A stretch of 64,000 nt of DNA from Candidatus Hodarchaeota archaeon (GCA_016839785.1 JAEOTQ010000034.1:1206-65205); one strand, 5' to 3'. Positions 46,802 through 61,788 are shown, counted from the first letter of the stretch. Numbers and translations: made by a program. The notes: a model not told the origin generated them from the letters alone.

Positions 46802-47254
46802 TTACAAATACACCGAAATAGACAGACATAGTAATCCTATCCCTACGAGCTTAAAAAATAAATTCCCCCAAAACGAATCCCATCCGAGATTTGTTATTGA
46901 AAGATGGAAAAAACCCAGCCAGATGCCACCCGAATTGAATGCATCAACGAATGCGTGAATGAAAAATGCTCCAAATGATGAAATAATAGCAATTTGTAAT
47001 AATGGAGAATCAGGTAGGTAGAAACATAAGAAAATTGGAAGTCCATACAGTAAATTATGTGACAGCTTACCACGGTGAGGAATAACTTGATTGAATGTAT
47101 ATTTAGCGATTTTCTGATCATAATCAGGTAAACGAGAAAAAAATGGTGCTAAAATAAATGACCCAACTCCCCATAAGCCGAGGGGTACCTGAAGATAAGC
47201 CAAAGTAATACTAACAAGTCCTACTCCAAAGAGGGTGTGAGTTAATCCTTTCAT
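46802..47254 (-). CDS. Membrane-bound metal-dependent hydrolase-like protein (YdjM/DUF457 family)
   Basis: MKGLTHTLFGVGL N-terminus, four hydrophobic segments, conserved His/Asp positions. Confidence 0.5.
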   Translation of the reverse strand: MKGLTHTLFGVGLVSITLAYLQVPLGLWGVGSFILAPFFSRLPDYDQKIAKYTFNQVIPHRGKLSHNLLYGLPIFLCFYLPDSPLLQIAIISSFGAFFIHAFVDAFNSGGIWLGFFHLSITNLGWDSFWGNLFFKLVGIGLLCLSISVYL

Positions 47255-47362
47255 TTCAAATCACTTAATTTATAGGAGTATAAAAATATCTCTCTTGTCA
47301 CAATAATGAGTGAAGTATTTTTGATCACAGAATTTAAATCCTATTTTTTGTAGTGGGACCCG

Positions 47363-50263
47363 ATGACCATTCTGAATGCTCTCTTTTTGAATCGTAAGAA
47401 TGGAACTTTGGAATTATATGATAATCAAGATCAGCAACTTTTAGTGCTAAGGTTGAATCAACCGTGGCTGTATTTTCCCTTTTCAAAACTAAATTATCTT
47501 ACTCATATCCGAATTATTAATCCATTTTATCTTGAGGAAGGGGAGTATGAAACTACACCTGATACACTCATAATCATCGATCCTAATATCCTAGTTAACT
47601 CACGTGCTATTGCAAGTGCTCATGTCTGTCCTCGACAAAGCTATCTTCAATATATTAGAGGAGATTCAAAACCTTCCCTACCCATGATTCGCGGACTGAT
47701 TATTCATGACATCTTTTCATTAATCATAACAAAAAATGTCTCAGTAGCTAAAGCTAGTGAACATATACTTGAACAATACTGGTTCCAGCTTTCATATCTA
47801 AAAGTTAATTTACGTAAGTTTAAGGAGGAAATACTGCCAATCATTCAGGGATTAGCTCACTCAGCTAAAGAATGGATAAATTCCAATGTAATTCCAGAAA
47901 TGACTTTCTTATCACCTCTATACGGAATAATGGGCCGCATAGACTTCTGGACCCAAGAAGAATTATTTGAGCTCAAAACTGGCAAGAAAATACCTTCAGT
48001 AGAAATTAATACATGGACATCTGATTTGTACCAAACTTTGATATATATGCACGGCTTAAGTAGCTCTTCCAAAAAGGCTGTTAGTAAATCTTATGTCATT
48101 TATTCGGGTATAGGAGTTCCTTCCTATAGATCAACCGTTATCGATAATTTATTACTACAAAATATCCATATAGCACGAAATCATTGTTATCTATTCCAAT
48201 ACGAAGATTATATCCCTCCTGTAATTGAAATTTCAGTTTGTAGATATTGTTTTGTCAAAGATCTATGTGAAATGTTTGAAAAATTAGAACTAGAGGCATC
48301 ACATCTGGCCTACACGTATTTTCAACATTTTATGTTGTTATTACGTCAAGAACATTTGAAAAATAGACAAGATTTTTCATTCCTATGGAAATTAAATCCT
48401 AGAGGACGGATTAAACTTGGTAAGGCAATTTCGAATATTTCTCTAGTCAATGTCAATGATGATTCTTACACTTTTACCTGTAATAACCATTCAGAATTGA
48501 AACCTGGAGAACCAGTGATATTCAGCAATGGAACTCCAACCTTGGATAAAACAATGATTGCTACAGTTACCGCAATTAGCCAATCGTCAGTCACGGTACG
48601 AAGTTATAATAATTTATCTCCATATTCCTTTCTTGATGCTTACTCATCAGATTTTAATTTTCGGAGACTGAACAAAAATGTGTTTGAGCTAGCACTAGGG
48701 TCAAAGAAAGGTCATAAAGCCCATAAACTAGTAATTAGGGGTATTAAACCAGGATTTACAAAGAGAGAGAAATTAAAGATCGAAACTGTAGATGATTCTC
48801 AACTCCAAGCTATTCAAAAGGCAGTAGAAGCCAATGATTATTGCTTAATTCAGGGACCTGCAGGTACAGGTAAGACATATACTATAACCAAACTAATAGA
48901 TGAGTTCCGAAAGGAAGGTATGTCGATTCTCCTAACTTCGTACACAAATACAGCTGTAGATAATATCCTAATTAATTACTTAGAAAATACCAGATTCAAG
49001 AATGAATTCAATCATATGACAAGGTTGGGGATCGAAGCTTCTGTAAGTTCTGAAATGATACCCTTTCTCTTAAAAAATCAAAATTTATCTTTTGAAGAAT
49101 TATTAAAAGTCCCTATAATTGCCGCAACCACTAGTACGATAAGTAAAAGCCTATTTGACGACCTTAACTTTGATGTAGTCATCGTTGATGAGGCAACACA
49201 AATGGCGGAGCCACATTTATTATCGGCCATAGCCAAGGGAAAAAAATTCATTCTTGTTGGTGATGATAAACAACTTCCTCCTTTGGTTCAAAGCCAGCAA
49301 GCAGAGAATTTAGGTCTTGGAATGAGTCTTTTCACCCGTTTAAAACAAAAATATCCTGATACGAATTCTCTCCTTCGTTTTCAATACCGTATGAATAAAG
49401 AATTAATGAATTTTAGTAACCAGCGTTACTACGAGGGACAAGTTGAGGCGATTAATGATTCAGTTGCCAAACAACTACTCTGGGAATTATTACCTTCTGA
49501 TGCAGATCTATCAAAGGTGGATCCATTTATTCAGTTAATCTTAGATCCAAATCAGCCCCTTGTTTATGTTGGAATAGATACGGAATTCAACAAAAAACGT
49601 CGAGTAAATTTGGGAGAAATTTTAATTATAAGACAATTAGTCGAAACACTATTGAATCTAGGATTGTCACCATATAGTCTAGGAATAATCGCTCCTTTTA
49701 GAGGACAGGTAGCTGAACTAAGGAGGAGTTTAAAAAACTATACGAGTTTATTAATTGATACTATTGACAGGTTTCAAGGGTCTGATAAGGAAATGATCAT
49801 TTTATCTTTATGTTCTCTTGAATCCCCTCATTTACTTGAGGACGAGAGACGATTAAATGTTGCTTTAACCAGGGCTAAGAAAAAAATGATTATTGTAGGA
49901 AACAAACCTAGAGAAGATTCGATAGCACAGTTTAGAGCCCTATTCCTCCATATTCAAAAACATTCTTCGGTTATTTTAATGAAAACGAACACAGCTCACG
50001 AAGAAAAAAGAGGAAAGGTGCACTCAAAAACAATTCAACTGAAGACATCGAAGGTAAAATTAGAAAAACAAGACAAGAATGAAGATTTCACTATGGAAAT
50101 TAGCCATAATACATGTGTTTTATGTTTGAAAAATATAAAAGATGAGAAGAATCTATTAAAATGTCCGATTTGTAATCAAGCTTATCACAAAGATCATCTC
50201 GAAGAATGGCTACTTACACACGAGTCTTGCGTTGTATGCCAGAGTACTATTCAACTATTATGA
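47363..50263 (+). CDS. Dna2-like protein: Cas4-type PD-(D/E)xK/Fe-S nuclease + SF1B (Upf1/Dna2-like) helicase + C-terminal RING/PHD-like zinc finger
   Basis: Nuclease: AHVCPRQSYL, GRIDFW..ELFELKTGK, LYQTLIY, CRYCFVKDLC. Helicase: GPAGTGKT, VIVDEATQ, LRFQYRMN, IDRFQGSDKE, RRLNVALTRAK. Finger at 50114-50239: C-x2-C-x12-C-x2-C-x4-H-x2-H-x10-C-x2-C. Confidence 0.8.
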   Translation: MTILNALFLNRKNGTLELYDNQDQQLLVLRLNQPWLYFPFSKLNYLTHIRIINPFYLEEGEYETTPDTLIIIDPNILVNSRAIASAHVCPRQSYLQYIRGDSKPSLPMIRGLIIHDIFSLIITKNVSVAKASEHILEQYWFQLSYLKVNLRKFKEEILPIIQGLAHSAKEWINSNVIPEMTFLSPLYGIMGRIDFWTQEELFELKTGKKIPSVEINTWTSDLYQTLIYMHGLSSSSKKAVSKSYVIYSGIGVPSYRSTVIDNLLLQNIHIARNHCYLFQYEDYIPPVIEISVCRYCFVKDLCEMFEKLELEASHLAYTYFQHFMLLLRQEHLKNRQDFSFLWKLNPRGRIKLGKAISNISLVNVNDDSYTFTCNNHSELKPGEPVIFSNGTPTLDKTMIATVTAISQSSVTVRSYNNLSPYSFLDAYSSDFNFRRLNKNVFELALGSKKGHKAHKLVIRGIKPGFTKREKLKIETVDDSQLQAIQKAVEANDYCLIQGPAGTGKTYTITKLIDEFRKEGMSILLTSYTNTAVDNILINYLENTRFKNEFNHMTRLGIEASVSSEMIPFLLKNQNLSFEELLKVPIIAATTSTISKSLFDDLNFDVVIVDEATQMAEPHLLSAIAKGKKFILVGDDKQLPPLVQSQQAENLGLGMSLFTRLKQKYPDTNSLLRFQYRMNKELMNFSNQRYYEGQVEAINDSVAKQLLWELLPSDADLSKVDPFIQLILDPNQPLVYVGIDTEFNKKRRVNLGEILIIRQLVETLLNLGLSPYSLGIIAPFRGQVAELRRSLKNYTSLLIDTIDRFQGSDKEMIILSLCSLESPHLLEDERRLNVALTRAKKKMIIVGNKPREDSIAQFRALFLHIQKHSSVILMKTNTAHEEKRGKVHSKTIQLKTSKVKLEKQDKNEDFTMEISHNTCVLCLKNIKDEKNLLKCPICNQAYHKDHLEEWLLTHESCVVCQSTIQLL

Positions 50264-50285
50264 AAATAAATAACTTGAGGGTAGA

Positions 50286-52028
50286 ATGATTTTGTCACCA
50301 AATAGGGATAGTGATCTCAAAAAAAACCTTGGTGCATTCTATACTCCACCTCTGCTTGCCTCTGAATTGACGAATCAATCAATGAATGAGGCTATTTCAT
50401 CACAAGTACAACGATTATTTGGTATCTCACTTTCTGTAGAAAATCTTCTCAATTCAGACGAAAAAAATGTTCTACAAGCAATTTCAACTTACTTACTAAA
50501 TTTTACAGTGCTGGATGGCTCATTAGGACAGGGTGAGTTTCTTATAACGTCCTATCGGTCTCTAAAAGAAATATTTGAATCAGTGACAATGCAACTTACC
50601 AAATTAGGACAACAAGCCACCATTTTTCCCCAACGAAGAATTTTAAATAATTTATTTGGGATGGAAATTGACTCTGGTACTTTGAATGCGTGTGGAGAGA
50701 ATCTCAAAGAGCATAATTGGGATATCAGCAAAAATCACATTTTAAAGTGGATAAAGAAAAATCTCGTTGAAGGGAACTTCCTAGAAAGTAATTTATGTTC
50801 TTGGGAACATCTACCTGAGAATTTTCAAGGGTTCGACCTCATTATTGGAAATCCTCCATGGGGAAGTCAATTAACAAAGGAGGAAAAAGCTTACTACCAT
50901 AAGAAATTTAATTTATCAGGATCAAAACGAAATTTAAATTCGTTTGAACTTTTTGTATATCAGAGTACAAATTTACTAAAACCAAATGGTGGTTACTTAG
51001 CTCTATATCTCCCGAAAAACTTAGTACGATCAAACCAGTATGTAAATTTGAGAAAATTCATTCTTACTAACTATCAACTCAAATCTTTGGTTTTTCACGA
51101 TTTGTTTGTAAATGTCACACAAGAATTTATCTCACTTATAGCTCATTTCACTGAAGAAGAAAAAACAAGCAATAAATTACATGTGAACCAATTAGGGGAA
51201 ATTCTCCAAAACGTTTACTTGACTAATACTGATTATATATTCACCAATTTAACAGATAAAACATCCTTCCAATTATTAAACCTAATTAAAAAAAACACCA
51301 AGACATTAGAAGAATATGTAACAATACAACGAGGGGAAGAACTCAGTAAAAGAGGAGGAATTATGTATTGTAACTTATGTACATCATGGGTTCCACTATC
51401 TAGTAGAAAACCTAACATTGAATGCCCCCAATGTCATGAAGTTTTGAACAAAACCGATTTACAGGCTCAATTTCTTATAAGTCCAAGTAAATCCTCAGAA
51501 CACAAAATACCTATTCTCACAGGAGATGATTTTGATCAATATTTAATAAATTCTACTCATTATTTCAATGACTTAATAAAATTTAAATCCAAAAAGAATA
51601 CGGATATTTACCAATCCCCCAAAATTGTCCTCCAAAAAATAAAACGATTTCCCTGTGCAACAATAGATCTAAATAATACCCTGACAACTCAGAATGTTTA
51701 TAATATTCGTTTAAAGGAGCAATGGCAAAAACATCCCAAGTATCTTTACTATATTTTAGCTATACTTAATTCACATCTGATGAATTGGTATTATGAAAAC
51801 CAATTCAACCTAGGATCCAAGTATACAAATGCTATATCAATTAAAAATTTGAAACGACTTCCAATCCGACCTCCAGAGAAAAATGAAAAGACAGTCGAAA
51901 CGATTGAGAGAAAAATAAGAAATTTATACACTTCTGAAACCCTTTCGAATTCTTGGAAAGAAGAAATTGATAATCTCATATATCGTGTGTATAACTGCTC
52001 TGCTATTAATGAAAATTTCAAAATTTGA
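50286..52028 (+). CDS. Gamma-class N6-adenine DNA methyltransferase (Eco57I/TaqI-like) with TRD and an inserted CxxC...CxxC zinc ribbon
   Basis: LGAFYTPP (motif X), VLDGSLGQGEFL (motif I), IIGNPPWG (motif IV, NPPW), CNLCTSW...CPQCHE. Starts 22 nt after the helicase-nuclease stop. Confidence 0.8.
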   Translation: MILSPNRDSDLKKNLGAFYTPPLLASELTNQSMNEAISSQVQRLFGISLSVENLLNSDEKNVLQAISTYLLNFTVLDGSLGQGEFLITSYRSLKEIFESVTMQLTKLGQQATIFPQRRILNNLFGMEIDSGTLNACGENLKEHNWDISKNHILKWIKKNLVEGNFLESNLCSWEHLPENFQGFDLIIGNPPWGSQLTKEEKAYYHKKFNLSGSKRNLNSFELFVYQSTNLLKPNGGYLALYLPKNLVRSNQYVNLRKFILTNYQLKSLVFHDLFVNVTQEFISLIAHFTEEEKTSNKLHVNQLGEILQNVYLTNTDYIFTNLTDKTSFQLLNLIKKNTKTLEEYVTIQRGEELSKRGGIMYCNLCTSWVPLSSRKPNIECPQCHEVLNKTDLQAQFLISPSKSSEHKIPILTGDDFDQYLINSTHYFNDLIKFKSKKNTDIYQSPKIVLQKIKRFPCATIDLNNTLTTQNVYNIRLKEQWQKHPKYLYYILAILNSHLMNWYYENQFNLGSKYTNAISIKNLKRLPIRPPEKNEKTVETIERKIRNLYTSETLSNSWKEEIDNLIYRVYNCSAINENFKI

Positions 52029-52050
52029 GAACTTTGTGATGAGGAAGAAC

Positions 52051-52833
52051 TCATTCTTTTTTTTCTAGGTAATTATCAAGTGTAGTATTTTGAATGTCTT
52101 TTTCCAACGATTTACCAAACAATGCTTTTTTTTCAATTATTGATTTGTATTCTTCTCTCAATTCAAAACCTATCACATCCCTTCCAGTCCTTCGAGCAGC
52201 TAGAATTGTTCCTCCAGAACCAGAAAAGACATCTCCTACTAAATCACCTACACAGCTTGAGGTAAGTATTAATTTTTCCAAGAGAACTATAGGAAGTTGA
52301 CAAGGATGTCCCTTAATTCGATGAGGGTCGTTTCCTCTATTGTACTCCTGCCAAAAGAAAACATCTTCATCATAATGCTTCTGTTTAGTAAACTGATATT
52401 TTTTACGATTTTTTACGAGTAATAAAATGTGGTAATGACTTGTAACAAATCGACGTTTTGTATAGACACCCCAGGAGAAATTCCAGATCGCATGATTCAA
52501 CATATGAAAACTTGTGGTTTTGAGTGCATTTAGGATGTATTGTAAATTAGTCCATCCAGATATTATATAGAGACTTCCATTGACATTAAGTGCATTATAA
52601 CAATTTAAAATCCATCTTTTAGAAAACTCAAAGTAAGATTCGGGAGTAAAATCGTCATTGTATAAATGATAATCATCCGCACCATATTCATGGGAGGATT
52701 TACTGAAGGATATACCAAATGGAGGATCTGCAATAATTAAATCAAATAACCGCTCCTCAGCTATCATAGGTAAAGTCTGATTGACATCTCCTATGACTAA
52801 CTGGTATTTGGTGTTAGAATTCATTCTCTGCAC
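52051..52833 (-). CDS. Beta-class N6A/N4C DNA methyltransferase (N6_N4_Mtase family)
   Basis: IIADPPFG (motif IV) precedes HPCQLP...DVFSGSGGT (motif I), the beta-class order. Begins 6 nt after the DUF1156 methylase stop. Confidence 0.8.
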   Translation of the reverse strand: MQRMNSNTKYQLVIGDVNQTLPMIAEERLFDLIIADPPFGISFSKSSHEYGADDYHLYNDDFTPESYFEFSKRWILNCYNALNVNGSLYIISGWTNLQYILNALKTTSFHMLNHAIWNFSWGVYTKRRFVTSHYHILLLVKNRKKYQFTKQKHYDEDVFFWQEYNRGNDPHRIKGHPCQLPIVLLEKLILTSSCVGDLVGDVFSGSGGTILAARRTGRDVIGFELREEYKSIIEKKALFGKSLEKDIQNTTLDNYLEKKE

Positions 52834-52839
52834 TCAAAA

Positions 52840-54984
52840 TCAAGTTTGTATTATACTCAAATAGAGGTCTTTACAACTTTTCCATAAATCGGATTTTGAA
52901 TTTGGTTTCTGTTCAAGAATGGGTTGTACCTGTGAAATAAGCTCTAAGTATTCTCCAAAAAAAACAACGATTACATTATTTGTTTGTATCGTGAGTCCAA
53001 TATTAGAATAATATTCAATTTTGTTATGATAATTTTGATTCAAACGTATTACAAATTCTGCTAAGGAAACATTGTTCCTAATTTCTTCAACCGTAAGATA
53101 ACAACTAATTATTAAATCATAGGAAATAGCCTTTTTATTTTGAATATTCAGCACATTCAAGGCTTCACTCTGTAAAGCGTGAGTTTTTTTCACACTAAAA
53201 CCTGATTGTTCAATTATATCCGCAAGCTTAAACCAGGTATCAGGATCTGCATGATGAAATGTAAAAACAAATACTCCATCAGGAGAAAGTTGCCTTTTAC
53301 AGTTTGAAAAGATGTTAGCGAGTTTTAAATAGTAATCTGAATTCCTGTTTTTTGCTTCTATAGCCTCCTCAAGTTTAGGAGTCTCAACTGGAATAAAAAT
53401 TGGATATTTCTTCTTCAGTATTAGTCTAATCCAAACATATAAGAAATCAGACAGTTCTGAATAGTTTACATTATCAGCATATGGGGGATCTGAAATAATG
53501 AGGTCAATACCATTTGGAAATAAAGGTATTTTTTCGGAGTCTTGGCAGAGAAGCAGTAAATTACTTTTTTGATTGGGAAAATCCTCTATTTCTCCATTAT
53601 GTATGCATCCATCAATTTTTCCTACCATAACTTTATGACGTTTTCTTGTTGATACATTTTTGCTACTATATTCAAAATTATAGGGCGTGTGATTATACTC
53701 CTTCCCTTTCAGTAATCTTTTGAGGCATTTAATCCAAGTTCCCCTTCCATATCTTGTCCCCCAAACATTGTTTTCAGCATACGTAGACAAAGGATGAAAA
53801 TCATGGCGAGAAAAAATACCTTCTACTTTTTGACCTTTAGGAGAGTACCTGGTAAATGTATTGTTATGGTTTAGGAGGTTAAGAAACGCAGCTAGAAGCA
53901 TCTCCTGAAGATTATCTTCTTCAATATCCTTAATATAGTCTAAGATCAGACTCAAAGTCAATAATTGGCGGGAATTGAAAAGATCAGCCCATTTCGAGTA
54001 GTTGTGATTTAATAAGACTTTTGTTGTAACTCCAATCGAAATATCTTCTTTCGGCCAAAGATATTGATCCGAAAGATTCTGCCATTGCTCTTCAGCTTCC
54101 TCATAGAGATCGAGATCTTCTTGTGAAACTTTTTTGATAAATTTAAATTTTGATTTCGATAGATCTGAATTAGGATCATTATCATTTGCACAGTGTGAGC
54201 AGAATCCTTCGATTGCAAAGGGTTTGCTAGATAAAGGGGCTTTCCTGGACTGAGTGGTGTTTAAGATTTTGATTAAGTCTCCGCAATCAGGACATTCGAG
54301 GATTTTTCTCCCCTTTCGGTAACCAGAACTAGCTTTGAATTTATTATTACAATCAGGACACCTGATTTCTGACGTAAGCGGTTTATTTGAGGAAAATACT
54401 GCATGGCATGAAGGACAATAAACAATTGCTTCATTAGCCAAATAACCAACAAGAAAATTCCGGAACATCGGAATATTTGAATTACACGTAGGACAGGGTA
54501 AACTTTTAACCCAATGTGTATAAATTATATCCGCGTTATTCTTGCATTCTGGGCAAAAAGTTTTGTACCATTTTTTTATGTGATTTTTCAAATCTCCTTC
54601 ACATTTAGTGATTAACAAGTTTAGCTCTTCTGTATCGACCATAACACTCTCAGTTTTAGTTATAAACCATGCAACTGGATTAATGTCTACACCAATACAA
54701 TTCATTCCGAGCCTTAAAGCTTCTATAATTGTCGTTCCTCCCCCCATAAATGGGTCAAGTATTGTTATATTATTAAAGTTATCTTTTGCTTCATAAAATT
54801 CTTTCATGATATCATCTGAAGGATCTAAGATACAGGAAAGGAGAATTGCCCTAAAAATTGAGGAAGATCGTCGAGCGAACCATTTAGACATCTGATAAAT
54901 AGGTTTATAGCTACTTCGTTCAGGAATAGCGAGCTGACTAATTTCAATGATTGGAAAAGTGGTTTCAATCATCCTTCTAGTCAT
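52840..54984 (-). CDS. DUF1156/COG1743 adenine-specific DNA methylase with multiple Zn ribbons
   Basis: N-terminal FPIIEIS...SKWFARRSS, LDPFMGGGTTIIEALRLGMNCIGVDINPVA, four CPxC pairs, ISDPPYADNVNYSELSDFLYVW. Confidence 0.75.
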   Translation of the reverse strand: MTRRMIETTFPIIEISQLAIPERSSYKPIYQMSKWFARRSSSIFRAILLSCILDPSDDIMKEFYEAKDNFNNITILDPFMGGGTTIIEALRLGMNCIGVDINPVAWFITKTESVMVDTEELNLLITKCEGDLKNHIKKWYKTFCPECKNNADIIYTHWVKSLPCPTCNSNIPMFRNFLVGYLANEAIVYCPSCHAVFSSNKPLTSEIRCPDCNNKFKASSGYRKGRKILECPDCGDLIKILNTTQSRKAPLSSKPFAIEGFCSHCANDNDPNSDLSKSKFKFIKKVSQEDLDLYEEAEEQWQNLSDQYLWPKEDISIGVTTKVLLNHNYSKWADLFNSRQLLTLSLILDYIKDIEEDNLQEMLLAAFLNLLNHNNTFTRYSPKGQKVEGIFSRHDFHPLSTYAENNVWGTRYGRGTWIKCLKRLLKGKEYNHTPYNFEYSSKNVSTRKRHKVMVGKIDGCIHNGEIEDFPNQKSNLLLLCQDSEKIPLFPNGIDLIISDPPYADNVNYSELSDFLYVWIRLILKKKYPIFIPVETPKLEEAIEAKNRNSDYYLKLANIFSNCKRQLSPDGVFVFTFHHADPDTWFKLADIIEQSGFSVKKTHALQSEALNVLNIQNKKAISYDLIISCYLTVEEIRNNVSLAEFVIRLNQNYHNKIEYYSNIGLTIQTNNVIVVFFGEYLELISQVQPILEQKPNSKSDLWKSCKDLYLSIIQT

Positions 54985-54999
54985 ACAATCAGAACCATT

Positions 55000-55647
55000 T
55001 TAGGATCTACCCTTAATGAACTGAGTAAATTCAAAAGGCGTATTAAAAACATAATCAGGCTTGCATTGGAGTAATTTATCAATCTCGACAGATCCCCATG
55101 TAACCCCAGCTGTTGGAACACCAGCAGCTTTTCCAGCAATTACATCTAAATGACTATCCCCAATAAAGATAACTTCCTCTGGGTTGAGACTTAAATCTTC
55201 CAATATTCGAAACAGTGCATCAGGATAGGGTTTCGAATTTTCCACATCACTTCCAGTGTAAATAAGGTCAAAACAATCCGTAATGCCGAGTTCTTCAAGT
55301 GAAATTGTATTTGTATAACGTGATTTGCCAGTAAAAATTGCTAGATATTGTACATACTTTCGAAAATCACTTAATTCTCTACGAGAAAAAAATCCCTCTT
55401 TGGTATGAGTCTCACGATATTTAGCCAAAAACTCACTCCATGCTTTGTCAACTATATTTGGAGGAAATATTTTTCTGAAAATTTCATCTCCTGGGGGTCC
55501 CCATAAAGATAACACTTCTCTTTTAGTCATACTTTTGTCTGATCCAAGATATTTTACTACGATATCTTGAAATAGAGAAATAATCGAATCTGTATTATCA
55601 AGGAGTGTCCCATCCACATCAAATATGATACACTGTAACTTTGACAT
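55000..55647 (-). CDS. HAD-superfamily phosphatase (phosphoglycolate phosphatase/PpaX-like)
   Basis: IIFDVDGTLLDN (motif I), TGKS (motif II region), GDSHLDVIAG (motif IV). I prefer the ATG at 55647; the 38-aa extension in the track ORF looks non-genic. Confidence 0.75.
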   Translation of the reverse strand: MSKLQCIIFDVDGTLLDNTDSIISLFQDIVVKYLGSDKSMTKREVLSLWGPPGDEIFRKIFPPNIVDKAWSEFLAKYRETHTKEGFFSRRELSDFRKYVQYLAIFTGKSRYTNTISLEELGITDCFDLIYTGSDVENSKPYPDALFRILEDLSLNPEEVIFIGDSHLDVIAGKAAGVPTAGVTWGSVEIDKLLQCKPDYVFNTPFEFTQFIKGRS

Positions 55648-55663
55648 GTTTAGCCACCGTACC

Positions 55664-55682
55664 TTTTTATTATATATTTTTA
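55664..55682. promoter_or_regulatory. AT-rich TATA-like element in the ~65-bp divergent intergenic region between the HAD and methyltransferase genes
   Basis: The sequence TTTTTATTATATATTTTTA lies ~25 nt from the minus-strand ATG and ~40 nt from the plus-strand ATG, compatible with short-leader or leaderless archaeal transcripts in both directions. Confidence 0.3.
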
Positions 55683-55715
55683 ACTTAGAACTATGGAATA
55701 AGAGATTGGATATTG

Positions 55716-56531
55716 ATGAAAGATTCAGGAAGTATTGATCCTCGCAATAAGTTAAATGCACTCTCTGGGAAAGAGTGGATTCGTTTTACAAAATCTTGGT
55801 TTATTGCGGATGGGAAATCAAGTGACATTTCACGCGAGATCGATTTGCATCCTGCATCTTTTCCACCTTCTATGATAGAGGATTTCATTAATTTCTTTAC
55901 TAAACCAGGTGAAAAAGTGCTAGATCCATTTTTGGGAACTGGTTCGACCTTAGTCGCCTGCGAAAATACTGGAAGGAAAGGTGTAGGGATAGAACTTTAT
56001 CCAAAATATGCTAAGACTGCGAAATCCAGGACTAACTTCCCTGTTCTGGAAGGAGACCTACGAAAATTATTGTGTACACTGGATATTAACTCATTCTCTC
56101 TTTGTATTACATCTCCTCCATACTGGAGAATATTAAAGAAAAAAAAGGATTATAATCAACAGGAACGTCTAGAAAAAGGTCTTGATCTACAATATGGACA
56201 AAATCCTTTGGATTTAGGTATGATAGAGGACAAAGAAGAGTTTTTAAAGGAACTCACAGACACTTTTTCCAAAATTCATGCTCTGTTAACTGAGGGAGCT
56301 CATCTAATTGTTTTTATTCAAAATGTTAGGGATAAAGGAGAAATGATCCCTCTCGCTTTTGAACTTCCTCTTCGTCTCAAGAAATGGTATTCTTTTTTAG
56401 GAGAAAGAGTATGGTTACAAAATCAGAAGACTTTAAGACCATATGGATACCCATATAGTTTTGTTTCCAATGTCCATCATCATTTTGCATTAATATTTAA
56501 GAAACGAAGCCAAGATCTTAAACAGAAATAG
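55716..56531 (+). CDS. DNA methyltransferase with SPPY catalytic motif (likely N4-cytosine or N6-adenine) and permuted motif order
   Basis: HPASFPPSMIEDFI..VLDPFLGTGST (motif I) comes before ITSPPYW (motif IV), the opposite order to the 52051-52833 enzyme. Confidence 0.7.
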   Translation: MKDSGSIDPRNKLNALSGKEWIRFTKSWFIADGKSSDISREIDLHPASFPPSMIEDFINFFTKPGEKVLDPFLGTGSTLVACENTGRKGVGIELYPKYAKTAKSRTNFPVLEGDLRKLLCTLDINSFSLCITSPPYWRILKKKKDYNQQERLEKGLDLQYGQNPLDLGMIEDKEEFLKELTDTFSKIHALLTEGAHLIVFIQNVRDKGEMIPLAFELPLRLKKWYSFLGERVWLQNQKTLRPYGYPYSFVSNVHHHFALIFKKRSQDLKQK

Positions 56532-56537
56532 CTCGGA

Positions 56538-57911
56538 ATGAATACTATGAAACTAACACCTTATGGTGGTATTGATGAAATTGGGGGAAATTGTTTCCTG
56601 TTTGAAGCAGAAAAAGCGAATGTTCTCTTAGATTTTGGTCGTTCCTTTAAAAATGAAGGAATCTATTATGCTGGTTATCTCCTCCCTAGAACGAGCCAAG
56701 GTTTAACTGATTTCCTAGAGTTTAACATCATCCCTAGAATTAATGGATTATATGCTGATGAGTTTAATGTCAATTTTTTGGGAGAAAGAAAGAAGATCCA
56801 TGGTTGTTTCTTGTCACACGCACATATGGATCATTACGGAAATATTAATCTGTTATCTGAGGATATTCCTGTGTATATGGGGGAAACTGCAAAAATTATT
56901 CTTTCTTCTGTTCAGGAAACCTCACGACCTAGGTTTGGAAGACCATTTATCAAACCCGCCTCTGAAAGTCAACCTTCTAATGTCCGAACATTTCGCACTG
57001 GTGATTCAATCCAAATTGCCCGTCTAACCATTACTCCAGTTCACGTAGATCACTCTATACCTGGTGCTTATGCATTTATTATTGAAGATCGAAAGGAGGA
57101 TCTAGTTATCGGCTACTCAGGGGATGTACGTTTACATGGTTGGCGAGAAGATCTTACTACAGACTTCATTAAAATAGCGAAGAAGAAAGGAGTACAAATT
57201 TTATTGATGGAGGGGACGAATGTTAATGAGGATTTTAACTTAAATGAACGTCAGGTCCAACATGACGTATCAGAAACTATTCAAAAGACTGAAGGTTTGG
57301 CCATTGCAAATTACACACTGAGAGATATTGATAGGTTTAGGAGTTTCTTTATTGCAGCAAAGGAAAACTCACGAAAGCTTTTGATAAACTTAAAACAAGC
57401 TCACTTGTTGAAACTACTACAGAAAGATACAAATCTGGATATTCCCTCCTTTGATGACCCTAATATTGAGGTCTATCAGCGTCCAAAAAGCAGATACTAT
57501 CGTTGGGAACAAGAAATTATTAATGATCCTATCATCCAAATCATTGATAGTCCTGATTTCCCACAGGAAGAGTATGTTTTTCACTGTGATTTTTGGAATC
57601 TAACTGATTTAATTGATATACAACCAAAAGCAGCGACGTATTTTTATTCACATGGCGACCCTTTCTCTGAAGAGGGACTAATTGACTATAATCGTATGAT
57701 GGAATGGGTGAAAGCTTTTAAATTTGATTTCCATCAATTTCATGCCTCTGGACATGCACCTCGAAAAGACTTAAGGCACATTGTCAATGAAATTTCCCCA
57801 GAAATACTGATCCCTATTCATAGTGAACATCCAGAAAAATTTAAAGAAATTGTAGACATTCCCTTAATTCTTCCCTCACGTGGACATAGTATCAACCTTG
57901 GAAAGTCATGA
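56538..57911 (+). CDS. Metallo-beta-lactamase/beta-CASP ribonuclease, archaeal RNase J-like
   Basis: MKLTPYGGIDEIGGNCFLFE..VLLDFG, SHAHMDHYGN (HxHxDH), late HASGHA. Size (~450 aa) fits archaeal RNase J. Confidence 0.6.
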   Translation: MNTMKLTPYGGIDEIGGNCFLFEAEKANVLLDFGRSFKNEGIYYAGYLLPRTSQGLTDFLEFNIIPRINGLYADEFNVNFLGERKKIHGCFLSHAHMDHYGNINLLSEDIPVYMGETAKIILSSVQETSRPRFGRPFIKPASESQPSNVRTFRTGDSIQIARLTITPVHVDHSIPGAYAFIIEDRKEDLVIGYSGDVRLHGWREDLTTDFIKIAKKKGVQILLMEGTNVNEDFNLNERQVQHDVSETIQKTEGLAIANYTLRDIDRFRSFFIAAKENSRKLLINLKQAHLLKLLQKDTNLDIPSFDDPNIEVYQRPKSRYYRWEQEIINDPIIQIIDSPDFPQEEYVFHCDFWNLTDLIDIQPKAATYFYSHGDPFSEEGLIDYNRMMEWVKAFKFDFHQFHASGHAPRKDLRHIVNEISPEILIPIHSEHPEKFKEIVDIPLILPSRGHSINLGKS

Positions 57912-59087
57912 GAAAAGACTAAAAAATGTCTCGAAGCCGACTGTTAGATGGATAAAATCAATCAATCCAAATGCAAAAGTAAGAGCAAATAATTTTGTTA
58001 ATAATCTTCTTTCGTTAAATGGTAGGATGACTATCAGGGAATAAAACCACATCCAGTACCATGGAAAAGCTGTTGTATATATTTTTAAAAATGTAAGAAG
58101 TAATAATAAAGGAATCCAATACCCCCGTTCTATGATCCCTTGGATATTGAATGAGAACTTAAAATCTTTTGTAAATGGTTTCAACCAGAGAATTAATCCC
58201 AAGAATAATATTCCAGTTGATAAAATGGATGATATATATAGTTTTGAAATCATTAATGGATTTGAGGGAATTTGCCCCGAATATTGATTTAAATCCCCGA
58301 AAAAACTGAAGTACGCTAAAATAAACTGTGACCATAGTAAGGGGAAGGACATTAGTAATATGGTTCCTATTAACAGTAAAATACCGGAAAACATTCGTTT
58401 CATTGATTTATAATCTTTTACAATTAAATATGGGAGAATGAGTAATGTAACATATTTCCAATGAAAACCAAGGCCTACTGCTATATAACTTGCTTGATTG
58501 TTGTGAGAGTACAGTGCAATCGAAATCAAAAAGAAAAATATGGTAATAGAAGTTGATTGGCCCTCGATTGCAGAGAAAGGGATCGCAAATAAGAGATAAG
58601 AGAGTGTAAAACCTTTTTCAAATAGCTCAAGGTTTTTTGATTCATCTTCAAAAGCTGTAAACCGTTTCAACAATCCAAATATTAGAAGAGTATTAAAAAT
58701 ATCGAATATTGAAAGAAACCATTTGGCTGTAATCTGGGGGAAAGGAAGAATTGAAATTCCAGCCCAAAATAAGAGTTGTAGAGTCGGATAATCATAGGTT
58801 GTATTAGGATAGGAAAGAATACCTGATGTGGGATCACCAATGGAATAATTAGGATCGATTTCGAGAGGAGTCATGTCATAAACTTGAAAACCATACTCCC
58901 AAAAAGCCTCTCCATAGAAAAGATTCCTTTCAAAATCACTAGTAAACTTCGGGATGAGGAAAAACCCTAATATGATATGAGCTACAATCAGAAAAAAGAA
59001 TAAGTACTTGAGAGACCCGAGTTCTTGAATAAACGATCTAAGTGAATTGCTACTCTCCTTTCCAAGATTTTGCAATTTAAATAGCAT
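57906..59087 (-). CDS. Polytopic membrane protein, possibly a GT-C-type glycosyltransferase (DUF2029-like)
   Basis: About 11 hydrophobic segments, with an extracytoplasmic loop ..YDYPTLQLLFWA.. resembling GT-C/DUF2029 first-loop motifs. The assignment is weak. Confidence 0.35.
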   Translation of the reverse strand: MLFKLQNLGKESSNSLRSFIQELGSLKYLFFFLIVAHIILGFFLIPKFTSDFERNLFYGEAFWEYGFQVYDMTPLEIDPNYSIGDPTSGILSYPNTTYDYPTLQLLFWAGISILPFPQITAKWFLSIFDIFNTLLIFGLLKRFTAFEDESKNLELFEKGFTLSYLLFAIPFSAIEGQSTSITIFFFLISIALYSHNNQASYIAVGLGFHWKYVTLLILPYLIVKDYKSMKRMFSGILLLIGTILLMSFPLLWSQFILAYFSFFGDLNQYSGQIPSNPLMISKLYISSILSTGILFLGLILWLKPFTKDFKFSFNIQGIIERGYWIPLLLLLTFLKIYTTAFPWYWMWFYSLIVILPFNERRLLTKLFALTFAFGLIDFIHLTVGFETFFSLFS

Positions 59088-59564
59088 GCTAGATCACTCA
59101 TGAAATCTGACGAAACCATTTTGCATAATTAGATTGATAGTTATTTCATCAGCAATAGTAATTAATATTTTCAAAACTAAGTATATTTGTGGAGTCGACT
59201 AAATCTAGTTTTCACTCCGACTAACTTAAATTTTCCCTCTAATTTATGACTTTACTTCCCACCTTTTTCTCCTTACTACAGTTATTTATTTTTTATAAAT
59301 TAGAGATACTTTGAAAGACACTTTTGATCACTTAAGTGTAGCAAATATTAATGTAAATGAGCTTCAATTTCGTGAAGTACCTACTGATGACATGAGTGTT
59401 GTTACGGAGATAATAATTCCTAATCCAGTTGATAAATGTAGAAATAACCTAAAATTTTTTATTAGATTAGTTTTTCTTTTTTACGTCGGTTTTTCTAATG
59501 TATAATTAAAATTCAAATAATTTAAATAGTTCGAAAATATAATGTATCACTCGAGGCTTCTCAC

Positions 59565-60755
59565 TTGGTTTCTCCTGGAAAATCATTTCTAGAAGGCAAA
59601 AAACATTCACGGCATTGGCGTGAGCAATTAAATTTTGCTCAGATGCTTAATGCTATTTTTCAGGATGATTTTCCATTATCTTTTCCTCAGAGTTATGTTA
59701 ATACTTCTGAAATTCAAAGATTAAGCCATTTACTTGGACAAATGGTGAATGCAACGCCTTTACCAAATGAAATATTCTCCTTAACACTTTTAGGTGCCCA
59801 AAGAATTGGTAAATCTTCAGCTGCACGCTTCATTTCTCAAGAAATTAATGAAATGATAGGCCCCAATTATTCTCGCTATGTGAAGTACGATCATCAATTT
59901 TGGGAGTGGTGGGAAGAGACTGATTTTTCCCAGACCCAAATTTTCTTCTTTGATGATATTTTTCCCATCTGGGATGATTTATCCTTTACCTCCTTTCAAG
60001 ATCTTCTTCAACGCTCTAAATATGATAACATTATTGTTGTGACATTATTAAATACAATTGAAGACCATTGGTTAAGAAAAAAGTCTAAAAGTGAGGATTT
60101 ACTTCTATTTGGTCATAAACCTCTCTTCTTCCATTTTAAAAAACCAGATCAATCTGAAATACAACAGATGGTAGAAAAAAGAATGGATATTTTAGAAAGT
60201 ACTCATTTTCTACCTCAGAATGTTATACGCTATGCAAGTGTTCTATCATTCGGTCTTCCAGGACTCGCCCTTTGGCTTCTGAGAAATATTCCACTAAAAG
60301 TACTCGATCGGAACCAAGTACAAAAATTAACTCTAGAGGATTTTCAAGTTGTTGTATCAAGATTAAATTTTGAGAAAGCTCTAAAGCTCATTATCGACAA
60401 TAATTCACGAATTGTCCAAGAAGACAATGATGAAGCTGGAGGGGAATTCTGGCCTATAATTGAGCCATTAAAGGACATATCTCCCTCATTTGTACGATCT
60501 TTAACACGTATCAAAAAAAACATTATCCCTAAGAAGGGAATTTTAGAAGAAATGATCTTTCTAGATTATTTAGAAGGATCAATACAGCGATCAGAACTCC
60601 AAGAAAGGTCAGGAATAAAAGATTCTTCCTTAACGTATCAATGTCAGACCCTTCTGAAGTCAGGAATTATTTCCTACTTCAAAGAAGGAAGAGATGTTTA
60701 CTACCGTCTTTCCTCCCCTGTGAAAGAAGTCTTAGAACTGTTGTTCTTTAATTAA
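59565..60755 (+). CDS. P-loop NTPase with C-terminal winged-helix domain (Orc1/Cdc6-like or 'archaeal ATPase'-like architecture, highly divergent)
   Basis: Walker A GAQRIGKSS, Walker B IFFFDDIF, C-terminal SELQERSGIKDSSLTYQCQTLLKSGIISYFKEGRDVYYRL (wHTH-like). TTG start. Confidence 0.45.
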   Translation: MVSPGKSFLEGKKHSRHWREQLNFAQMLNAIFQDDFPLSFPQSYVNTSEIQRLSHLLGQMVNATPLPNEIFSLTLLGAQRIGKSSAARFISQEINEMIGPNYSRYVKYDHQFWEWWEETDFSQTQIFFFDDIFPIWDDLSFTSFQDLLQRSKYDNIIVVTLLNTIEDHWLRKKSKSEDLLLFGHKPLFFHFKKPDQSEIQQMVEKRMDILESTHFLPQNVIRYASVLSFGLPGLALWLLRNIPLKVLDRNQVQKLTLEDFQVVVSRLNFEKALKLIIDNNSRIVQEDNDEAGGEFWPIIEPLKDISPSFVRSLTRIKKNIIPKKGILEEMIFLDYLEGSIQRSELQERSGIKDSSLTYQCQTLLKSGIISYFKEGRDVYYRLSSPVKEVLELLFFN

Positions 60756-60768
60756 TAACTGTTCAGTT

Positions 60769-61788
60769 CTACATTGTTGTTATTGTCGATGTTTCCCCTA
60801 TTTTGTAAAGATTCTTATGAATTGAAAGTGGTACAGCGTCCAATAACCATAAGGTGCCATTTTCATCAAAAACAAACTCAATCATGTACCCTACTTCAAA
60901 ATCATCATGAATTTTTCTTGCTAATTGAGCCAGAGTGGAGATTTTTTCGGGATCCAGCGAAAGTATGGTCTTTCTTGTGGGATCGTTTTCAATAATTTCC
61001 AGTTGGTGGTTTTCGGGGGAAATATGCGATATTTTTTGTTTGTATGCATTAAATGTTTCGATAGGTTCTCCTATTTTAGTTTCAGACGGATCAATGATGA
61101 TATGGTCACATAACACTCCTTCCTCTGCTTGGTGTACTTGAGCTCCCCAATTGGCTTCTATGTGAACTTTTTCATCTTTATCGCTTTCTTCAATGTACAT
61201 TTTCCCGCTAACTTCTGCTTGAACCATTTTTTCGACAATGACCGCCACCCAAACACTATCAGGAGGGAGACCCGCACTTATCAGGTCCTTCAGTACATCA
61301 GCTGTATATGCAGACGCCCAACAATTCTTAACAACACGAATGATTTGGGTAATATCATTCATATGGAAATGAACTCCCCTTCCAGAGCAGACATGCCGGG
61401 ATGACCCTTCAACATTCGCTGAAGTACGAACGATTAATGCTTGAGAAGGAGACTTGTCTAATAAAGAAGATATAGCAGTAGCCATTTGATTTGCCATTTG
61501 CATTGGAACAGGGCTAAAATTTATTAAATCTTGAATTTCTTGAGCCGTTTCTGCAATAGTTGCTGGTGTAACTTGCTCAATTAATTGATCAATACGTTTT
61601 GTTCCTGGAGCTGTATTAAGATATCTTTTGAAAACTTTTGTTGAAATTACAATCCCCTTGGGGATATGATACCCTCTTGCCATTAGTCGTGAAAGAGAAC
61701 ATGCTCTATCACCAAATGTATCAGCACGAGCATAATCTACCTCAGATAATTTAAGAATTGGTTGCGATTGATACATTTGACAACTCAT
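60769..61788 (-). CDS. PEP/pyruvate-binding (PPDK_N, ATP-grasp) domain protein; stand-alone N-terminal module of a PEP synthase/pyruvate,water dikinase
   Basis: GDRACSLSRLMARGYHIPKGIVISTKVF..YL and the later ..VRTSANVEGS.. resemble the PpsA/PPDK nucleotide-binding domain. No phospho-His or PEP-utilising domains follow. Confidence 0.6.
   Translation of the reverse strand: MSCQMYQSQPILKLSEVDYARADTFGDRACSLSRLMARGYHIPKGIVISTKVFKRYLNTAPGTKRIDQLIEQVTPATIAETAQEIQDLINFSPVPMQMANQMATAISSLLDKSPSQALIVRTSANVEGSSRHVCSGRGVHFHMNDITQIIRVVKNCWASAYTADVLKDLISAGLPPDSVWVAVIVEKMVQAEVSGKMYIEESDKDEKVHIEANWGAQVHQAEEGVLCDHIIIDPSETKIGEPIETFNAYKQKISHISPENHQLEIIENDPTRKTILSLDPEKISTLAQLARKIHDDFEVGYMIEFVFDENGTLWLLDAVPLSIHKNLYKIGETSTITTM

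Follow-up and report, generated by a model that had tools for sequence, protein, structure and literature searches.

Introduction

DNA methyltransferases (MTases) that are conserved within archaeal taxa have been termed 'persistent', and are mostly Type II orphans (PMC10609329). They include PF01555-family enzymes that form N4-methylcytosine (m4C) or N6-methyladenine (m6A), and BREX-like MTases (PMC10609329; PMC6471742). The survey of archaeal restriction-modification (RM) systems (PMC10609329) contains a single Asgard genome, that of a Lokiarchaeote, and does not cover Hodarchaeales. Hardly any work exists on the methylation of Asgard genomes, and methylomes were found only for Atabeyarchaeia and Freyarchaeia (10.1101/2024.03.22.586370). 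Another described arrangement, related to BREX and centred on DUF499, is the 'Hma' layout, in which the DUF1156 N6-MTase is called HmaB (10.1101/2025.10.09.681413). In this study, we analyzed a stretch of 64,000 nucleotides from a Candidatus Hodarchaeota archaeon (GCA_016839785.1 JAEOTQ010000034.1:1206-65205; hereafter the window), in which four DNA MTase genes, M1 to M4, are located within about 6 kb (50286-56531 of the window).

The window corresponds to positions 1206-65205 of contig C198 in a metagenome-assembled genome (MAG) of 4.04 Mb (248 contigs, 84.5% complete, 36% GC). At their sources, the nearest protein matches bear the name 'Candidatus Hodarchaeales archaeon'. We consider it probable, with a rough probability of 0.72, that the four genes encode 'persistent' solitary orphan DNA MTases, which have been inherited vertically under purifying selection and have no restriction partner. 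What is new here is thus a set of members of an already known kind. Hodarchaeales are often placed closest to eukaryotes, and one genus of this order would keep at least four solitary DNA methylases, with more in a paralogous cluster, as core genes. The locus therefore provides a defined and testable set of candidate writers of epigenetic marks, in a lineage that bears on the origin of eukaryotes. It would also be a clear case in which methylases of defence systems, including one of the BREX-related DUF1156 type, were trimmed and domesticated, and automatic tools may count genes of this kind as RM or defence components. As a source of candidate writers and an example of domestication, the locus is of modest interest.

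Four methyltransferase genes of different architecture

All four MTase open reading frames (ORFs) are intact and differ in architecture. M1 (50286-52028, plus strand) is a gamma-class MTase of the N6-adenine type with a zinc ribbon and a TaqI_C-like target recognition domain (TRD). It matched the Pfam families Eco57I (2.4e-19), TaqI_C (9e-17) and N6_Mtase (1.9e-9) and the PADLOC model MTase_II (3e-23), and its matches to the Protein Data Bank (PDB), M.TaqI and MmeI, were weak. The order of its elements, motif X (GAFYTP at residue 16), motif I (DGSLGQG at 77), motif IV (NPPW at 189) and finally the TRD, assigns it to the gamma class. M2 (52051-52833, minus strand) is a minimal MTase that PF01555 covers over the whole profile (4.1e-37). 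Among PDB entries it matched CcrM (1.5e-17), 8urk (4e-20), M.MboIIA and DpnA. Since DPPF at residue 36 precedes FSGSG at 203, M2 belongs to the beta class, and it is likely to be an N6-adenine MTase. Its translation may start at the ATG at 52824.

M3 (52840-54984, minus strand; 714 aa) is a trimmed MTase of the DUF1156 type in which PF01555 is split. The matches were to DUF1156 (3.3e-4) and PF01555 (5.2e-15) in Pfam, to HmaB in PADLOC (2.3e-27) and to NF042963 with 135.7 bits, far under the cut-off of 1000 bits. Motif I (FMGGG at residue 79) is followed by three zinc ribbons comprising six CxxC pairs, a helical insert, and motif IV (DPPY at 499). In the alignment, the cysteines of the zinc ribbons are invariant even in paralogues of 33-35% identity. 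M4 (55713/55716-56531, plus strand) is a small PF01555-family MTase with permuted halves and a C-terminal TRD. PF01555 matched it in two swapped pieces (2.2e-25), with the half that binds S-adenosylmethionine (SAM) first, so that FLGTGS at residue 73 comes before SPPY at 134. Among PDB entries it matched TTHA0409 (2zie; 2.3e-22), with which M4 has TSPPYW in common. SPPY is typical of N4-cytosine enzymes, and its presence suggests that M4 is of this type.

M2 and M3 are separated by 6 nt (TGA TTT TGA), and the gene downstream of M4, which encodes a metallo-beta-lactamase (MBL) protein, begins 6 nt past the end of M4. A haloacid dehalogenase (HAD) phosphatase gene lies directly 5' of M3 with a gap of 15 nt and is divergent from M4. 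The gaps in the block range from 6 to 68 nt, leaving no space for an unannotated gene inside it. Judging from this arrangement, transcription would occur as two divergent units, one (HAD-M3-M2) on the minus strand and the other (M4-MBL) on the plus strand; M1 converges on M2. Within its co-directional unit, M2 is the second or third gene. An earlier note, made from the sequence alone, had described four DNA MTases of four architectures within about 6 kb, and its coordinates, motifs and M3-M2 and M4-MBL gaps were all borne out, as were the family assignments by profile matches.

Since M3 and M2 share a frame, recoding of TGA and fusion of the two proteins were considered and rejected. Long ORFs in this genome end with all three stop codons, and translation table 11 therefore applies. 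In addition, M2 is a complete MTase by itself, and M3 and M2 are in different frames in one relative (G011). The genome contains about 18 PF01555 loci in 4.04 Mb, or about one per 200 kb. At this density, and with the same arrangement in about 20 other species genomes, clustering by chance is not plausible.

Conservation, synteny and selection

Thirty relatives were searched with concatenated queries, and ORFs were mapped in ten loci from nine of them. The genus comprises 22 species genomes, 21 of which are other than that of the window. In the following, genomes are designated by G numbers where they need to be told apart. The gene order is kept throughout the genus: P-type ATPase (e660), PPDK_N, o396, o393, MBL, M4, HAD, M3, M2, M1, YdjM and AlaX. 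This synteny holds in nearly all of the 22 genomes, including the single-contig assemblies G010 and G016. An order-wide search, in which the E-value was set to exclude paralogues, found M2 and M4 together in 19 of the 21 other genus genomes. The three exceptions (G005, G007 and G009) are incomplete assemblies (71-80% complete), with the locus at a contig end in G005 and G009. The same search found neither gene in the two fragmentary genomes of the sister family. M1 orthologues of 41-68% identity, with NPPW invariant, were present in 17 of 18 genus relatives sampled for M1 and for hel, the helicase-nuclease gene upstream of M1.

Within the genus, M2 and M4 show identities of 69-86% and 65-88%, respectively, with invariant motifs. 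The mean identities to the window proteins were 76% for M2, 72% for M4, 56% for M3 and 47% for M1, compared with 76% for AlaX and 75% for the P-type ATPase, and the identity ranks of the block genes are congruent with those of the housekeeping neighbours. Motifs IV and I were invariant in all of the eight or nine orthologues checked per gene. Against the closest relative (G002), the ratios of nonsynonymous to synonymous substitution rates (dN/dS) were 0.054 for M4, 0.086 for M2, 0.14 for M3 and 0.21 for M1. The ratios for AlaX, the P-type ATPase, PPDK_N and the oxidoreductase were 0.053-0.098, and that for MBL was 0.068. M2 and M4 thus evolve like their housekeeping neighbours. The dS values of the tested genes were mostly 0.8-1.4, which is near saturation, and uniform, as expected for co-inheritance.

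No tRNA, integrase, transposase or recombinase gene was found around the block. Its GC content (0.32-0.36, against 0.36 in the genome) and composition are ordinary, and the only variable gene of the neighbourhood is hel. The earlier note had proposed a modification or defence island, and had named conservation and synteny of the block in all relatives as the result that would refute it. The block is syntenic throughout the genus, has housekeeping flanks and carries no marks of mobile elements. The island interpretation therefore fails the note's own test and is not supported: the block is core, not accessory. The other option raised in that note, orphan methylases, is supported by the genus-wide synteny, the intact motifs, the dN/dS of 0.05-0.21 and the failure to detect a partner.

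In two relatives, insertions were found inside the otherwise conserved block. In G008 (L013, 15371-19882), a 1503-aa ORF forms part of the roughly 14 kb between M1 and hel. In G001 (L019, 9410-16634), which has lost M3, two TPR proteins and a 982-aa NosD/beta-helix protein are encoded between M1 and M2.

Search for a restriction partner

Ten consecutive proteins (47363-61788) were scanned with Pfam, NCBIfam and PADLOC. No restriction endonuclease (REase), HNH, PLD or other nuclease family was found in the four MTases, the HAD protein, o393 or o396. The only endonuclease-type families in this range were the Cas4/Dna2 domain of hel and the MBL/beta-CASP protein, in agreement with the first reading of the sequence, which had recognised no classical REase and had singled out these two genes as the only ones of nuclease type nearby. 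In M1, motif X lies as early as residue 16 and the TRD forms the end of the protein; there is no N-terminal nuclease. M2 and M4 are minimal enzymes, and M3 alone has unexplained length. An AlphaFold model of M3, for which 11 orthologues and paralogues were used as input, had a pLDDT of 70 and a pTM of 0.73. A Foldseek search of the PDB with this model gave nothing at E <= 0.001 (best 4e-3), and only Rossmann SAM-methyltransferases, with no nuclease fold, were present among the 50 matches listed. A nuclease hidden in M3 was rejected on the basis of this search. An overlooked REase domain inside one of the ORFs, which would make these ordinary Type II systems, was thus seen neither by the three family scans nor by the fold search with M3.

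Many relatives carry a gene for a thioredoxin-reductase-like (Pyr_redox_2) flavoprotein and a cupin gene between M2 and M1. These extra genes were considered as REases lost from the window and rejected by their families.

The two genes of nuclease type were analyzed further as candidate partners. The gene hel (47363-50263, plus strand) encodes a 966-aa protein with a Dna2/Cas4-type PD-(D/E)XK nuclease, a superfamily 1 (SF1) helicase like Upf1 and IGHMBP2, and a C-terminal RING-like zinc finger. It is full-length in 8 of the 18 genus relatives and absent from the other 10, which keep M1. In G002, G010 and G012, hel is deleted at the locus, and M1, with NPPW intact, is next to or near YdjM. Conversely, full-length homologues of hel, 34-36% identical, are present in G021 and G029, where no M1-like gene was found at E <= 1e-10. 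Neither pattern, hel without M1 or M1 without hel, would be expected if M1 restrained the hel nuclease. The hel homologues at this level of identity occur in other Heimdall-group families.

The MBL gene (56538-57911, plus strand) encodes an MBL/beta-CASP hydrolase of the RNase J type. It is missing between M4 and o393 in G006, is represented by a 174-aa fragment elsewhere in G016, and lies about 16 kb from M4 in G001 and G017, with M4 intact in each case. MBL-like genes are found without an M4-like gene in G025 and G021, and three outgroup homologues of M4 have no MBL neighbour. We therefore concluded that hel and MBL are not obligate partners of the MTases. The suggestion of RM-like systems with a non-canonical restriction component, also made in the earlier note, is not supported, as hel and MBL do not co-occur consistently with M1 and M4.

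Site depletion and transcription

The tetranucleotide CCGG is depleted in the genome, with an observed/expected ratio (O/E) of 0.38 (1088 sites against 2848 expected), whereas the ratios of all other tetranucleotides are at least 0.84. The lowest pentanucleotides are CCWGG (0.74) and GGWCC (0.79). In the genus, the ratios for CCGG and GGWCC are 0.49 and 0.68 in G010 and 0.47 and 0.53 in the pooled relatives; in another family (G025) they are only 0.79 and 0.89. The depletion thus shares the taxonomic span of the cluster. Neither an excess of CTGG/CCAG nor a bias between coding and non-coding sequence was found. Decay by deamination of 5-methylcytosine was rejected since CTGG/CCAG are not in excess, and the depletion of CCGG and GGWCC looks like avoidance of sites under restriction pressure in the lineage. 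It shows that site-specific pressure acts in this lineage, and could not be connected to any of the four enzymes. A link between CCGG and M4 is unsupported; the sole hint at the specificity of M4 is the label M.MjaV of a homologue.

The genome's only C5-cytosine MTase gene is solitary (C209:1148-2119; 323 aa, PF00145 6e-40), and its neighbours look like genes for a small RNA-polymerase subunit and a proteasome-activating AAA ATPase.

Within 47000-61000, the only near-identical (about 99%) contigs from marine-sediment runs labelled as metatranscriptomes were three short ones, one set of three runs being their source, and all fell on M2-M3 (52388-52644 and 53196-53511). They hint weakly at transcription of the M3-M2 unit in situ; carry-over of DNA could explain the contigs.

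Alternative interpretations

The succession of nuclease, helicase, MTase and TRD is the module order of Type ISP enzymes, and hel and M1 together mirror it. They might therefore form a split RM enzyme that cuts unmethylated DNA. The two genes are adjacent and co-directional in the window, G016, G011 and G001 (hel is directly 5' of M1; the distance is 22 nt in the window, 20 in G016 and 41 in G001, and the genes overlap in G011). As would be typical of a defence gene, hel has a patchy distribution in the genus, and it gives matches to MkoA and to further models of defence helicases. In G008, however, hel and M1 are about 14 kb apart. The helicase is of the Upf1/Dna2-like SF1 kind, not the superfamily 2 (SF2) motor of Type ISP. 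M1 is kept with intact motifs in the 10 genus genomes without hel, including the three closest relatives (G002, G014 and G004) and G010, whose assembly is one contig, and the hel homologues without an M1-like gene in G021 and G029 would not be tolerable for a nuclease controlled by methylation. We regard the split enzyme as quite improbable. The proposal that M4 and the MBL/beta-CASP protein are an RM-like pair, with an MBL-fold nuclease as the non-canonical restriction component, draws on the 6-nt gap in the window, on tight linkage or overlap in most genus members and on the strong conservation of both genes (dN/dS 0.054 and 0.068). It seems highly improbable, since MBL is absent, fragmentary or moved while M4 stays intact, since MBL-like genes and M4 homologues also occur apart in the outgroups, and since MBL best matches RNase J-type ribonucleases and has no PADLOC match.

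Another interpretation is that the cluster is the modification half of RM systems whose endonuclease genes lie unlinked at other sites of the genome or escape recognition there. The depletion of CCGG (0.38), GGWCC and CCWGG throughout the genus, which is much less in another family and has the classical signature of restriction avoidance in lacking an excess of CTGG/CCAG, favours this interpretation, and the MAG is only 84.5% complete. REases, in particular those of Type II, are hard to detect by sequence (PMC10609329). The depletion, however, could not be tied to any of the four enzymes, and no candidate nuclease was found in either of two independent MTase clusters. M2 and M4 are near-universal and evolve like housekeeping genes, whereas defence genes are typically patchy and fast-evolving. 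It is also unusual for R and M genes to be unlinked. Taken together, this interpretation is improbable. Finally, RNA or protein, and not DNA, might be the substrate of at least one of the four enzymes, with M4 the most plausible candidate. M4 and M3 weakly match models of the Trm11/UPF0020-type tRNA methylases (TIGR01177, 3e-5 and 4e-7; UPF0020, 6.8e-5), a homologue 46% identical to M4 is labelled 'TRM11 family' methyltransferase at its source, and strong conservation, the housekeeping context and the RNase J-like neighbour of M4 would fit RNA modification. By far the best matches, however, are DNA MTases (PF01555, TTHA0409, M.PvuII, DpnA, CcrM and the N4-cytosine MTase 8s9n). The combination of (D/S)PP(Y/F) and the PF01555 fold is characteristic of DNA MTases acting on exocyclic amino groups, and members of the M4 family elsewhere are in RM or defence-type contexts. 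A substrate other than DNA is therefore very unlikely.

Persistent orphan MTases thus remain the interpretation that we prefer. Several observations weigh against it. It is possible that an unlinked REase is encoded elsewhere in this 85%-complete MAG, and the depletion of CCGG and GGWCC, which resembles the result of restriction pressure, points in the same direction. Wherever hel and M1, or M4 and MBL, occur in the same genome, the pair resembles an operon. M3 has been lost in G001 and G017, showing that not every member is indispensable. The evidence for transcription consists of the three contigs on M2-M3, and the activity and the substrate of the four enzymes are predictions from sequence.

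If the four genes are persistent orphans, the MTases would descend from RM and defence-type families, would have lost their partners and would have become fixed at one housekeeping site. With SAM, each enzyme would methylate the resident chromosome at a short DNA motif of its own. Judging from the catalytic motifs, M1, M2 and M3 (NPPW, DPPF and DPPY) would produce m6A and M4 (SPPY) m4C, giving up to four constitutive genome marks. Such marks might serve the control of replication, repair or transcription, or standing protection against foreign restriction enzymes, and would not be a self-label for a linked nuclease. The genes were presumably retained since the marks gained a chromosomal role.

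A more far-reaching proposal, which we consider speculative and rather unlikely, is that Hodarchaeales turned an ancestral defence island into a fixed epigenetic module of several marks. The module would consist of three m6A writers, one m4C writer and the paralogous set, in the same region as topoisomerase and excision-repair genes, and the marks would be read by the replication, repair or chromatin machinery. The HAD protein might be a member as well, for instance as an enzyme that removes methylated nucleotides from the nucleotide pool.

Probable origin from defence families, and a second, paralogous cluster

The orthologues of M3 form about 46 clusters of at least 50% identity and about 710 aa, with Hodarchaeales or Heimdall-type names wherever the source is named. 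Beyond these there is a sharp fall in identity, to 32-38%, and the matches are mostly DUF1156 proteins of ~990 aa, largely from bacteria. Two such relatives lie in operons with an AAA ATPase of about 885 aa, a protein of about 330 aa, the MTase, DUF8076, an SNF2 helicase of about 930 aa and toxin-antitoxin genes, and these operons correspond to the DUF499-centred 'Hma' layout (10.1101/2025.10.09.681413). M3 aligned to residues 2-752 of one DUF1156 relative (P0086) and, compared with this protein, is shorter by about 125 aa in the insert and by about 175 aa at the C-terminus. By this alignment, M3 is a trimmed, partner-less derivative of the DUF1156 MTases of defence operons.

The M4 family passes gradually into homologues from other Asgard archaea and from bacteria (43-52% identity), of which the 52% identical protein of Heimdall LC_2 bears the source label M.MjaV. 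Of the three outgroup homologues, one has another MTase and a MULE transposase as neighbours, one is in a GmrSD/TIR/HNH island and one is solitary. On the LC_2 contig (L046, 5001-9303), the M4 homologue is followed by a second PF01555 MTase, with two convergent unmatched ORFs of 373 and 364 aa and a MULE transposase near. It is possible that this locus is a complete RM system with unrecognised endonucleases.

A paralogous cluster is located on another contig (C150:7585-12460 and 22398-23729), where two DUF1156 MTases (720 and 694 aa) flank a thymidine kinase; the cluster also has an M4-like MTase. In G010, the two DUF1156 MTases of the corresponding cluster flank a PhoU/PiT pair, and a 769-aa Eco57I-like MTase is present in addition. 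The cluster is conserved in the genus, and no restriction partner was found in it on C150 or in G010. The M4 paralogue on C150 has an N-terminal extension and is split by an in-frame TAG. Read-through of this codon as Gln was rejected, as the G010 orthologue has Asn there.

Neighbouring genes

The phosphatase gene that had been noticed as embedded in the cluster was confirmed. It lies at 55000-55761 on the minus strand and encodes a HAD-IA phosphatase like PpaX and phosphoglycolate phosphatase, with matches to HAD_2 (Pfam, 1.2e-36) and, under the cut-off, to PpaX (NCBIfam, 8.8e-35). As the orthologues are 211-218 aa long, its true start is probably an internal Met at about 55647. The gene is tied to M3 and M2 in every relative locus, and abuts M2 where M3 is lost (G001 and G017).

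The MBL protein matched Lactamase_B_2 and RMMBL in Pfam and, under the cut-off, the RNase J family TIGR00649 (2.3e-24). Its PDB matches were 2az4 (1.5e-27) and RNase J structures, and PADLOC gave none. The protein is probably a ribonuclease, not a restriction partner. For hel, which ends 22 nt 5' of M1, the Pfam matches were Dna2 (1.1e-15), AAA_11/AAA_12 and zf-RING_2 (3e-6), the NCBIfam matches the IGHMBP2 family (6.6e-85) and Cas4 (1.7e-8), and the PADLOC match MkoA (9e-60).

The gene o393 (57906-59087, minus strand) encodes a polytopic membrane protein that is hydrophobic throughout, with no family match in Pfam, NCBIfam or PADLOC. Its orthologues are syntenic in the genus (53-76% identity), and it is not a nuclease candidate. 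The gene o396 (59565-60755, plus strand) encodes a divergent P-loop ATPase of 396 aa with a C-terminal winged helix, which matched only nSTAND3 in Pfam (4.9e-4) and an ArsR-type HTH in NCBIfam (1.6e-5), and nothing in PADLOC. An AT-rich spacer of 477 bp (59088-59564) precedes o396. A replication origin was considered for this spacer and rejected, as it contains neither ORB-like nor origin-type direct repeats. The flanks of the block encode an AlaX-type editing domain, YdjM, a pyridine-nucleotide oxidoreductase, PPDK_N and a P-type ATPase, and UvrB, UvrC, GyrA/B and Topo VI A/B are encoded elsewhere in the window.

Comparison with known systems

Two known defence helicases were compared with hel and rejected. 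It matches the helicase region of MkoA, but a MkoB/PLD protein, which would complete a Mokosh system, is not found among the ten neighbours. Prometheus ProA is a four-domain protein of about 1900 aa with DUF4011 and DUF3320 (PMC13700489), whereas hel has 966 aa, scores 85 bits against a cut-off of 1500 bits, and has no Pfam match to either domain. The resemblance of hel and M1 to Type ISP enzymes (LlaGI/LlaBIII) lies in the succession of nuclease, helicase, gamma-class MTase and TRD. Unlike in Type ISP, the modules are distributed over two genes, the helicase is SF1 and the co-occurrence is inconsistent. The single polypeptide or obligate co-occurrence that defines Type ISP and Type IIG enzymes was thus not seen for hel and M1.

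M2 resembles CcrM, M.MboIIA and DpnA in the order of motif IV, TRD and motif I, in DPPF and in the full-length PF01555. Unlike CcrM, it has only 260 aa and no C-terminal domain, and is encoded 6 nt after another MTase. M4 resembles TTHA0409 and the N4-cytosine MTases of the M.MjaV type in TSPPYW and the SAM-binding block. It differs from them in its permuted halves, with motif I before motif IV. The specificity of M.MjaV is GTAC, and GTAC is not depleted here (O/E 0.94).

M3 is similar to HmaB and related BR-MTases of the Hma system (10.1101/2025.10.09.681413) in its DUF1156 N-terminus and in the order of motif I, zinc-ribbon insert and DPPY, and shares 32-38% identity with HmaB-type relatives over about 630 residues. 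Unlike HmaB, M3 is about 280 aa shorter (714 against ~990 aa), with the insert and the C-terminus trimmed. Unlike in the Hma system, M3 is core, not patchy, is followed by a beta-class MTase, and has no ATPase, SNF2 helicase or DUF8076 neighbour. A DUF499/BrxC-like AAA+ ATPase (~900-1000 aa) is not beside M3, whose neighbours are the HAD gene and M2, and o396 is too small and too dissimilar to be such an ATPase and has no PADLOC match. Neither the window, nine relatives nor the paralogous cluster has an SNF2-type SF2 helicase or helicase-nuclease beside the DUF1156 MTase. The gene hel was rejected for this role since its helicase is of the SF1 kind, since it does not adjoin M3 and 10 of the 18 relatives lack it, and since its score, length and domains do not fit either.

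The best fit is with the persistent archaeal orphans, such as the haloarchaeal CTAG m4C MTase (HG1) and the Dam-like HG3 (PMC10609329; PMC6471742). Classical Type II RM systems would show an adjacent REase and a patchy, mobile distribution, neither of which was found for the four genes. As in persistent orphans, the locus is stable in most of the taxon, no cognate REase was detected by sequence or fold, and the motifs are intact under purifying selection. The four enzymes are thus like the haloarchaeal examples in being solitary, Type II-like and without an REase, in their conservation within the taxon, in their embedding among core genes and in their intact motifs. They are unlike them in that four architectures are clustered in 6 kb and accompanied by a paralogous second cluster, in a genus of Hodarchaeales.

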